This document shows positions 3,201 through 6,200 of a stretch of DNA of 25,105 bases, one piece after another (position 1 is the stretch's first letter; the number at the start of each line of letters is the position of its first letter). Source of the DNA: a virus (lineage: Duplodnaviria > Heunggongvirae > Uroviricota > Caudoviricetes); the IMG/VR virus record IMGVR_UViG_2703718818_000017, one strand, 5' to 3'. Position numbers: made by a program.

Positions 3201-6200
3201 GATAATCGGCTGTACCTCAATATTACGCAGATGCCCCCATTTAACAGCTTCATCAGGCCAGGTGCTTGCTGCAACGCGTAGCGGCGCGAGGACCAGTGCG
3301 GGGCGTGTTTCTGCCCCTGCCATAAAGAGATCTTCCAGCGTAGTGAGCGTTGCCACGGTTTTACCCATTCCCATCCCTGCCCAGATGTTGCCGCGCATGA
3401 TGTCGATTTCGTGGTTGATAATGAGATCTTGGTAGGGGCGGGGGGTGAAAATTTGTCCCATAGTGTTTTAGCCAGTAGGGCGCGGGTAATCCCGCGCAAT
3501 AATGTCAGATTAGATCGGTGTAGTAGGTGAAGTTGCCAAACTGCGGATGTGTCCAGCGCTTGCGGTTACCTTTCGGCGGTGTCGATTCGTTTAACAGCTT
3601 TTGAGCTGCTTGTTCGATCGCCGGAAGGTTAACGAGCAATCCCCGAACACCGGTGTCTGAACGTACCTGTATCCTGGCGAAGCCGATTAATTTCCGGCAT
3701 GTTGAATCAGATAAACCTGTTTTCCATGCTGCTTTGCTGACGGGGACATATTCACCTTCAACATGAGATAAATTTGCTGGTGCGGCTGGTTGAGAATAGC
3801 CAGTTGCATCAAGACAGGCTTTCATTGTTGCTTCTGCTACGACGCGAGCAAGCCGGACGATGCCGTCGTTGATCTGAATTTTGGGTGTGGAAGGATGGGT
3901 AACAAGCGGTTGTACTTTACCTGTTTCCAGCTCACGCCAGCGCTTAACTACTTTATACCGGTCGTGGGCGCTATAACCAGTTACAAGCGTTGTAGAAAGG
4001 TCCTGATCGAGTAGTATTTCATCAATGACTTCGCGACCATTATAGATCTTCCTTTTGACTAAAAAGTCTTTATTTTCATGATGGTACATTTTTGTACTAT
4101 GAAAACCTAACTGCTCAAGAAGTGCTTTAATATCGCGCACGACTATTTTATGTTCTTTGCTGGTAAGTTCTGCAATCTCGCGACTGCTCATCATCGGTTG
4201 CTTACCAGTGCCTGCTAGTGTTAAAGTTCTTTCGGACATTGAAGTGTTCTCCATTCAGTAAAAGATGCGCTGATAGTTGCAGCTACCAGCGCGTTTTGTT
4301 TATTCATCCCACGGCTTGTTTGCAGCCTCCCTTGCGGCCTGCTGCGCAAAATAAATCAATTCAAAAGCTAACTGCTCTCCTTTTTCCAGCGAACTGAGAA
4401 GTCTTGCTGTTTCCAGCATGTCCGCGATATACCCGAAAATATCTGCCTGATGTAACTGCGTGATCTGAATAGCCATAGCGTTAACCTCGATAGAACCACC
4501 GTGGTTCACTTTTAGTAAACCACCGTGGTTTATTGATGTCAACACCACCGTGGTGCATAATTTGGTGATTGAGTTTATGAGGTGTTTGCTATGAGTCGTG
4601 AAGATGCACAGATGAAGATCCGTTTACCTGCGGAGCTGAAAGCGCAGTTAGAAAAAGCAGCTCTGGAAAATAAGCGGTCTATGAATGCGGAAGTACTCCA
4701 TCGTCTCAAAGAAAGCTTTAATGTTTTAGTTCACATAACATATAAAGATTCCGAGGGGGAGTTATCAGATAGTAATACCTGGAAGCGTTTTTTGGAATCA
4801 TCTGAACATGGTGATGAATATAAAAAAGGCTTTGTTAAGCTTGTCAAAGAAAAATATAAACTTGATAAGGAAAATGAGAGGTTATATAGCTTAATTATAA
4901 GCTATTTGAACCCCACAAAGAATGAAGATGATTAGTTTGTGTTTGTAAGTCTGAATAATATTTCTGCATTTACTGAACGCATATTTTTCTTTGCTGTTTT
5001 CTTTAACTCCTCCGCTAATGCGCGGGGGACCCGTAATTTAAACTGTAAGTGCTCATCTGATTTTTTCACAATATCCCCTCTAGGTTCTTGCTATCCAGCA
5101 CCACTACGGTAAAGCCCAGTTTTCGCAGACGTTCATGTTTGCGCAACTGGTCAGGCCGTGGTGGCTTGCCGGGTGATTTACATTCAACGAAAAAGATACG
5201 ACCACCTGGTAGCAGGACAATGCGATCCGGTACCGAGCGGTGACCGGGAGATACAAACTTAAAGGCCACTCCACCAGCTTTTTTCACTTCAGCGACGAGG
5301 TGCTTTTCGATAAGGCTTTCACGTTCATAGGCCATCTGAATCCCACTCTTCAAAAAGCACATTCAATTCCAGTTTCTCTGCCAATGCGTTTTCTGCACGT
5401 GCGCCGGCCGAGTACTCCCACTCTTTGAGCATATAAATCGTATCGGCACAGCGAAGCATTGCGAGGCAGATGTCCATATACTGAGCTTGTGTCAAACCAT
5501 TGGGTAAAGTTGCGGGGTTAAGCACAACATATCCCTTGTCCGTTAGCCTCTTTGCTGCGGAATGAAAAGCCGGGCGGTTAAATTGCTCGTAACCGCTCAT
5601 CGGCCCGGCAACGTAAACGATCATTCTTCGACCGCCTTACGCTTTTCGCGCATGTTCTGCATCAGACAAAAATCAGACCGGCGTTCGCTCCAGTCCTGAT
5701 TCAGTTCGTTACGTGACTGGCGGTTAGCCTTGGCCCAGACCTTCGCTGCCCGGTCATATTCGCCGGACTGCTCAAGGCGCAAGGCCTCCCTCGCAGCCCG
5801 GTAATAAAGCGGACTGTCCCGATATTTAAATGACATAGGGGTTACTCCTGCTTTGCTTCGATTGGGCGGATGCTGCTCAGCACCAGACGAGTGCGGACAC
5901 CGACAGCACCACCGCGGCGGCCAGTGTCTTTGTAGTAATACTCTTTTGGGCCAGCCACCCACGTTGTCGCGTTTTGATGCAATTGCACCTGCTTTTCACC
6001 GGTGCGGGTAATAACCGTTCCGGTATGCGTTTTGATTACAGTCATAGCGATTAATCCTTACGGTAGTGGTACGCCTCAAAACCGCCAGCGTTCAGCGGGA
6101 TATCGGGCGCCCATTCGGGGTTAGTGGAGAGAAGCGCGGAGAGCGCTTTGTCGTTGAAATCGTCTGTGTCCGGAGCTTCGGTGATCACCTCATCGTGTAC

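Follow-up and report, generated by a model that had tools for sequence, protein, structure and literature searches.

Two Arc-family ribbon-helix-helix (RHH) genes at positions 4591 to 5069 of the virus record IMGVR_UViG_2703718818_000017, together with three operators and two face-to-face promoters, appear to form a secondary immunity switch of the phage P22 immI kind, a reading to which we give a probability of about 0.6. The window, i.e. the whole stretch of 25,105 nucleotides that was analysed, matches the chromosome of E. coli STEC1590 (NZ_CP129345.1) at 100% identity, and the element is an integrated prophage that adjoins yfhL and carries an integrase. A long, Mnt-like gene and a short, Arc-like gene converge on each other, and their products share matched reading heads. 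These heads and the operators, both absent from a first-pass annotation of this DNA, are the informative features of the locus. The module consists of the following elements.

4591..4935, + strand: long RHH (Mnt-like) gene, 114 aa; ATG at 4591, TAG at 4933-4935; PGAP WP_045149042.1
4591-4719, + strand: RHH reading head of the long gene, codons 1-43
4720-4932, + strand: C-terminal domain of the long gene, codons 44-114, orphan, AT-rich and probably helical
4932..5069, - strand: short RHH (Arc-like) gene, 45 aa; GTG at 5069, TAA at 4934-4932; PGAP WP_000747893.1
5066..5335, - strand: VRR-NUC/PDDEXK nuclease gene, to which the short gene is translationally coupled
4495..4505: operator O1, ACCACCGTGGT, an 11-bp palindrome (5+1+5), just past the inferred leftward -10 at about +3 to +13
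4519..4529: operator O2, ACCACCGTGGT, filling the spacer of the inferred leftward promoter
4544..4554: operator O3, ACCACCGTGGT, inside the rightward promoter spacer; flanked by C...G, where O1 and O2 have A...T
4533..4561, + strand: rightward promoter of the long gene, TTGATG-17 nt-CATAAT, from a promoter scan
4514..4542, - strand: inferred leftward promoter of the operon for a 58-aa protein and a Rha-family protein; -35 TTGACA at 4542..4537, 17-nt spacer, TTTACT at 4519..4514

Both open reading frames (ORFs) lie where the first-pass annotation had placed them, and its designation of the products as Mnt-like and Arc-like is supported. Compared to a gathering cut-off of 20.4 bits for the Arc family (PF03869), the long protein scores 41.0 bits over residues 2-44 and the short protein 38.1 bits; the RHH matches in NCBIfam are sub-threshold only. 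Alignment against the P22 Arc chains in the PDB (1arq, 1myk and 1baz) revealed that the long protein is in register with Arc, with Q7 on Arc Q9, and that the short protein aligns with Arc residues 1-41, with its own Q9 on Arc Q9. In these alignments both proteins have an N-terminal β-strand of alternating DNA-facing residues, followed by R-x-P, helix A, an N-x-R-S/T turn and helix B, and a multiple alignment is in agreement. The DNA-facing strand residues are Q-M-K-I-R in the long protein and Q-F-K-L-R in the short one, of which the shared Q-K-R corresponds to the positions of Arc Q9, N11 and R13. In addition, the helix-B cap RS(M/V)NAE is common to both proteins, and the long and short heads share 44-66% identity.

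Three exact copies of ACCACCGTGGT, spaced by 24-25 bp, lie in the 114 bp that separate the long gene from the divergent 58-aa gene; this copy number was reached in none of 100 shuffles. Further copies, sought throughout the 25-kb window as extra targets of the short protein, were not found. As the leftward and rightward -35 hexamers (4533-4542) overlap by 2 nt, the two promoters stand face to face. The promoter skeleton, TTGnTGTCAA and GCATAAT, shows little or no variation across 10 aligned loci, with GTCAA unchanged in all 10 of them, and the operator positions are likewise kept.

The genes, the selection that acts on them, the matched heads, the operators and the co-variation of operators with heads are direct observations. 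The contact residues match within the pair in every convergent locus examined. A second allele (type B, Q-R-R; loci L003, L028, L029 and L031), in which both proteins have Q-L-R-(V/A)-R and RTLT(S/A)E, was found in 13 E. coli genomes and three Xenorhabdus species. At the same three skeleton positions of the 10 loci, ACCACnGTGGT accompanies Q-K-R heads and CTCACnGTGAG accompanies Q-R-R heads in Xenorhabdus. The E. coli copy of the second allele has variant operator centres (CTCATTGTGAG and CTCACAATGAG) and a degenerate third site. In L003, residues 1-14 are identical in the long and short proteins and about 7 of 8.8 synonymous sites differ, which argues that the heads are kept alike by selection and not by recent gene conversion. 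Operator specificity changes when RHH ribbons or N-terminal residues are swapped, according to the passages of PMC3413123 that cite Knight & Sauer 1989 and Raumann et al. 1995. Since specificity resides in the ribbon and the N-terminal residues, a common set of operators for the two members of each pair is the simplest interpretation, and the long and short proteins of the window thus appear to share the three sites described above.

The idea that matched heads are exclusive to the convergent gene order was rejected, as about 6 of 17 divergent pairs, read by eye, also match. In L027 (Xenorhabdus bakwenae), the third operator at about 2452-2463 is a hybrid, TCCACTGTGAGG, whose left side is of type A (CCAC) and right side of type B (GTGAG); it suggests recombination between immunity types within an operator.

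The short gene begins with a GTG that overlaps the TGA stop of the VRR-NUC gene (GTGA, 5066-5069), preceded at 5 nt by a GAGGGG Shine-Dalgarno sequence (5080..5075), and its 3' end overlaps that of the long gene by 4 nt (4932-4935). The coupling and the overlap had already been noted in the first-pass annotation and are confirmed. Its description of the ORF as unannotated does not stand: RefSeq/PGAP lists WP_000747893.1 in the identical genome STEC1590, the gene is annotated as 'Arc family DNA-binding protein' in all 19 module-bearing E. coli complete genomes, and it is also called in Salmonella assemblies. Homologous short ORFs of 41-58 aa occupy the same convergent place in prophages of E. 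coli, Salmonella and Xenorhabdus, a placement kept in more than 12 distinct loci of these three genera, as the last cistron of the incoming leftward operon. Comparison with L019, L020 and L022 (76-80% protein identity) gave a ratio of nonsynonymous to synonymous substitution rates (dN/dS) of 0.05-0.18, with dS saturated, as expected of a gene under strong purifying selection. The start of the short gene overlaps the stop of the preceding gene, which is VRR-NUC in the window, L003, L022, L029 and L055 and SNF2 in L019 and L020; because the preceding gene differs, the start/stop coupling belongs to the cassette and not to one neighbour. Altogether, these comparisons indicate that the short ORF is a real, conserved and translationally coupled gene; the objection foreseen in the first-pass annotation, that it might be absent from relatives or have no translation signal, does not apply.

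Two loci show deviating forms of the cassette. L028 (Xenorhabdus sp. PB62.4, 2859-3498) has a short ORF cut to 38 aa beside an inserted 163-aa gene on the opposite strand, and looks like a disrupted copy. In L055 (E. coli LH50-c), the long gene at 1614-1928 is intact and encodes 104 aa, although PGAP lists it as an incomplete pseudogene (1614-1742); its product combines a type A head with yet another C-terminal tail, the long and short genes are separated by an 18-nt gap without overlap, and O1 is degenerate (ACCACTGCGGT).

The long gene is preceded by a GAGG Shine-Dalgarno sequence at 4579-4582, 8 nt upstream of its ATG. The alignment of its product to 1mnt spans residues 3-60 only (E = 0.0075), and the PDB alignment revealed no sequence homology between the C-terminal domain and the tetramerisation domain of Mnt. 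The AT-richness reported for this region is confirmed. The GC content falls to 26-38% over 4650-5000 (whole-window GC, 49.5%); codons 44-114 have a GC of 31% and a GC at third codon positions (GC3) of 0.30, compared to a GC of 45% in codons 1-43. As the GC3 of the neighbouring genes is 0.41-0.60 (0.50-0.60 without Rha), the low GC of the tail is not purely a matter of amino-acid composition. A search of residues 44-114 against Pfam and PHROG profiles found no match. A word-seeded search of 5.8 billion proteins with the same residues returned three clusters, all of 112-114 aa and with an Arc head, and an exhaustive phmmer search over 1.84 billion representatives gave a single match, of 114 aa; a tail without a head was not found. 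AlphaFold2 prediction of the long protein from a four-sequence alignment reached a mean predicted local distance difference test (pLDDT) score of 48 and a predicted template modelling (pTM) score of 0.30, and shows three helices in the tail; only the helix pattern of this model is usable.

For the long gene, dN/dS values of 0.02 (head) and 0.14-0.23 (tail) were obtained, with dS saturated, and the tails of relatives whose synonymous sites are saturated have an equally low GC (30%). The purifying selection and the same low GC in diverged relatives argue that the tail is old, coding and native to the long protein. Heads that are 67-88% identical to that of the window (58% in L021) bear unrelated tails in L021, L022, L026, L027 and L055. 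Near-identical heads on at least five unrelated tails thus point to a modular family, in which a single reading head is combined with many tails. On these comparisons, the long protein is modular and not the product of a recent fusion. The earlier description of the gene as chimeric therefore holds as a property of the family, but not as a foreign domain fused in this locus, where the tail is under selection and has no donor family among the 1.84 billion representative proteins.

An AT-rich perfect palindrome, TATAGCTTAATTATAAGCTAT, followed by TTTG, lies at 4885-4907 on the + strand, in the 3' portion of the long gene. As a terminator candidate it is too weak, yet it is sited where convergent transcripts would meet.

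The genes that would be under the control of the module, and those of the primary immunity region about 10 kb away from the pair, are as follows.

4300..4476, - strand: 58-aa acidic protein, first gene under operator control
4267..4292, - strand: terminator-like hairpin followed by a U-run (AUCUUUU), between the 58-aa and Rha genes
3505..4239, - strand: antirepressor-like Rha-family protein, second gene of the operon (Pfam Phage_pRha, 38.9 bits)
2067-3461, - strand: SNF2 helicase, after Rha
1870-2070, - strand: helix-turn-helix (HTH)/Xis-like gene, after the SNF2 helicase
14602-15282, - strand: CI-type repressor with HTH_3 and Peptidase_S24 domains
15276-15563, + strand: Cro-like HTH protein, divergent from the CI-type repressor
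15567-17786: Prim-Pol/VapE primase, after the Cro-like gene

The 58-aa gene adjoins the operators in every convergent-type locus. Its product matched no family in Pfam, PHROG or NCBIfam and no RHH profile. AlphaFold2 predicted a two-helix hairpin (pLDDT 76), for which a Foldseek search against the PDB returned nothing with E < 5. The hairpin between the 58-aa and Rha genes has a folding energy of -16.9 kcal/mol (z = -3.4) and might restrict Rha expression as an attenuator; L003 has a near-identical copy of its sequence. The Rha-family protein has no Pfam ANT or AntA domain, and its best PHROG matches are the anti-repressor families phrog_8235 (3.5e-17) and phrog_63 (3.8e-12). Relatives carry either Rha or Bro-N proteins at this position. 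As a CI-type repressor and a Cro-like gene occupy 14602-15563, the Arc/Mnt-like module would constitute a second control region, as immI does in P22.

We infer from these features how the module might bind its operators, when its genes would be expressed and what the regulatory outcome could be. The long gene is the only + strand gene of its neighbourhood and has its own promoter; made from this promoter in the lysogen, the long protein would be the likely lysogenic repressor. It is expected to bind the three ACCACnGTGGT palindromes as RHH dimers, probably linked through the C-terminal domain, and thereby to shut the leftward promoter, so that the 58-aa protein, the Rha-type antirepressor-like protein, the SNF2 helicase and the Xis-like gene would be off. 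Bound at O3, it would also autoregulate its own gene. The short protein, with the same contact residues on the same three operators and without the C-terminal domain, would be the lytic-phase partner. Because its gene comes last, and translationally coupled, in a leftward replication operon whose start lies below cI, it is expected only after induction or infection, upon loss of CI. It might act in a Cro-like manner, with a preference for O3, the operator whose flanks set it apart from O1 and O2, and so halt production of the long repressor, or in an Arc-like manner, turning both promoters down late in infection. A search of both strands between the long and short genes found no intrinsic terminator, so the convergent transcripts must overlap, and such an overlap may conceivably add antisense interference.

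A two-input RHH switch, in which the short paralogue displaces or poisons the Mnt-like repressor on the three shared operators and so ties the CI switch to a second one, is a tentative possibility. Here the short paralogue would be supplied solely by the CI-controlled replication operon, and its arrival would release the operon for the antirepressor, SNF2 helicase and excision functions. The convergent genes, overlapping at their 3' ends without a terminator, would exert mutual antisense interference. Swappable heads and operators would define immunity types and swappable tails oligomerisation partners, altogether a CI/Cro-like bistable device made from the RHH fold.

Several points weigh against the reading as a secondary immunity switch. 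The leftward promoter was read by eye; the promoter scan did not list it, and its -10 hexamer has no A at the second position. Two specificity types, each kept across genera, were all that was found, so the co-variation of heads and operators rests on two independent states. Oligomerisation through the C-terminal domain is suggested by analogy with Mnt; the AlphaFold2 model is of low confidence, and sequence homology to the Mnt domain is absent. Expression of the short gene from the CI-controlled operon only is deduced from gene order, and an internal promoter is possible. Moreover, a short protein bound to O1 and O2 would itself repress the leftward promoter, and its effect could go either way.

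Among the alternatives, a short protein that acts as a dominant-negative subunit is unlikely, though it shares much with the switch. Mixed dimers short of one C-terminal domain would break a cooperative repressor complex, making the short protein an antirepressor of the long repressor. The identity between the two heads, the intertwined nature of RHH dimers, the ability of Arc variants to fold preferentially as heterodimers (PMC3413123), and the position of a protein without the C-terminal domain at the end of a lytic operon are all in keeping with this. A pure poison would, however, need no DNA contacts, yet the Q-K-R or Q-R-R residues and the N-terminal arm show strict conservation and vary with operator type. 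DNA binding would moreover persist in a mixed dimer whose strands match, so that this explanation overlaps with a switch on shared operators. Improbable is the view that the long gene is a recent chimera of a Mnt-like head and a foreign AT-rich domain, beside an overlooked Arc homologue in an odd, perhaps accidental place. The low GC and GC3 of the tail and the occurrence of 67-88% identical heads with unrelated tails in L022, L026, L027 and L055 would favour it. As a recent event it is nevertheless largely refuted by comparison with relatives: E. coli and Salmonella both have the 114-aa architecture (61-79% identity), dS is saturated, the tail is constrained, equally low in GC and never seen without its head, and the short gene is already annotated and keeps its convergent place in loci of three genera.

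Two further explanations carry very little probability. The pair could belong to another RHH system, either a type II toxin-antitoxin pair or a ParG/omega-type partition system with the three repeats as centromere, as hinted by weak sub-threshold matches to FitA-like RHH and HicB and by matches of the RHH head to PHROG 795 and 2685, which are labelled 'partition protein ATPase'. These PHROG matches, however, span only the 43-residue head, and the repeats sit exactly on promoter elements. The toxin-antitoxin assignment was rejected, as the neighbours are VRR-NUC, the 58-aa protein and Rha and no toxin family adjoins the pair in any locus; partition was rejected because no ParA/ParF ATPase gene adjoins the pair in any locus and the prophage is integrated, its 19 E. 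coli copies all being chromosomal. Equally hard to credit is a short ORF that is merely a decaying, functionless duplicate of the head of the long gene. Its very small size and its truncation next to the inserted gene in L028 would suit such a fate, but the selection analysis (dN/dS 0.05-0.18 at saturated dS) refutes it. Moreover, the Pfam Arc match is above threshold, the Shine-Dalgarno sequence and the start/stop coupling are conserved, and the gene is present in Salmonella prophages of more than 1000 assembly blocks.

The secondary immunity switch proposed here has its closest counterpart in phage P22, where immI is the mnt-arc-ant secondary immunity region beside the primary region (PMC8022706). 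Similar to immI, the module comprises two Arc-family RHH proteins, a long one with a C-terminal extension and a short one; the long gene diverges from an antirepressor-type operon; overlapping face-to-face promoters bear the operators, here at the level of sequence; and a primary immunity region of the CI type (c2-like) is present alongside. They also differ. Instead of being the first gene of the antirepressor operon, the short gene lies past the long gene, convergent to it, as the last cistron of the replication operon, and the 'arc' position is held by the 58-aa protein, which does not score as RHH. The antirepressor-like protein is of the Rha type, compared to Ant in P22, the C-terminal domain of the long protein is unrelated in sequence to the tetramerisation domain of Mnt, and the module is located in the early region, whereas that of P22 is in a late operon. 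P22 Arc (Q-N-R) and Mnt (H-N-R plus an N-terminal arm) read different operators. By contrast, the long and short proteins described here have a common reading head and would recognise a single operator type, present in three copies. The first-pass annotation was correct that the arrangement is unusual, as it differs from P22 immI, but not that the short gene lies away from the antirepressor gene, since it is about 380 bp from the operators that would control the antirepressor-like operon.

In logic, the module would resemble CI/Cro of phage lambda, by analogy: a small protein of one domain and a larger repressor that also has an oligomerisation domain would share three operators across divergent promoters. 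As among OR1-OR2-OR3, one operator (O3) differs consistently in its flanks, and the small protein would belong to the lytic programme. The likeness does not extend to structure, where the RHH fold contrasts with the helix-turn-helix, and simple mutual repression as in lambda is not evident, because the first gene behind the repressor-controlled promoter is not the short one. The module is also similar to pairs in alpha- and beta-proteobacterial prophages (L021, L023 and L030-L050), in which a long RHH homologue with a variable tail has a short RHH partner within 200 bp. Those pairs, however, follow P22 in that the short gene lies upstream and diverges, and their contact residues match in the minority of loci given above, compared to every convergent locus examined.

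The module is rare in E. coli (19 of 5426 complete genomes) and common in Salmonella. Among 50,697 phage genomes, tblastn detected no counterpart of the long protein at E <= 1e-5, and a megablast search of the region against phages matched the VRR-NUC gene only. A description of the module was not found in the literature. PDB entry 9PIO bears the label 'Arc family DNA-binding protein' but belongs to a study of ClpXP substrates and was set aside.

From the left, the prophage carries the integrase, the HTH/Xis-like gene, the SNF2 helicase, the Rha-family protein, the 58-aa hypothetical protein and the two 'Arc family DNA-binding protein' genes, followed by VRR-NUC nuclease, DUF4406, ANR/PerC-like, DNA polymerase A, BRO-N, DUF2815 and DUF2800. 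A hypothetical gene of about 200 aa at 8141-8740 (+), between the DNA polymerase and BRO-N genes, lies inside the leftward operon; its product has no Pfam match, and it may be a moron or a lysogeny-expressed gene. The replication operon also contains a NUMOD4 plus HNH homing-endonuclease-type gene at 11859-12377 (-). In Salmonella relatives (L051-L054), HNH genes are found at varying places around the polymerase gene and SIR2_2 or Nmad5 genes are variably present, and the related phage vB_EcoM-606R2 has a TIR-like gene at the corresponding place, so this site looks like a hotspot for defence-like or selfish cargo. Among the smaller proteins, the ANR/PerC-like regulator of the replication operon (5621-5839, -) has a sub-threshold PerC match, and a 121-aa protein at 13418-13783 (-) gave a weak AP2-domain match of 21.5 bits, under the cut-off.

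The locus thus adds no new gene and no new type of system; it shows a conserved variant of the immI arrangement, whose new element is the convergent wiring of matched heads to shared operators. The two natural allele sets (Q-K-R with ACCACnGTGGT, and Q-R-R with CTCACnGTGAG) constitute a ready specificity swap for studies of RHH-DNA recognition, and could be used as orthogonal repressor/operator parts. If the proposed switch is true, an Arc/Mnt pair would be wired in a second way, with one shared operator set and the short protein supplied by a lytic operon, compared to the separate operators of the textbook system. The module would then serve as a checkpoint between inactivation of CI and expression of the antirepressor, helicase and excision genes.

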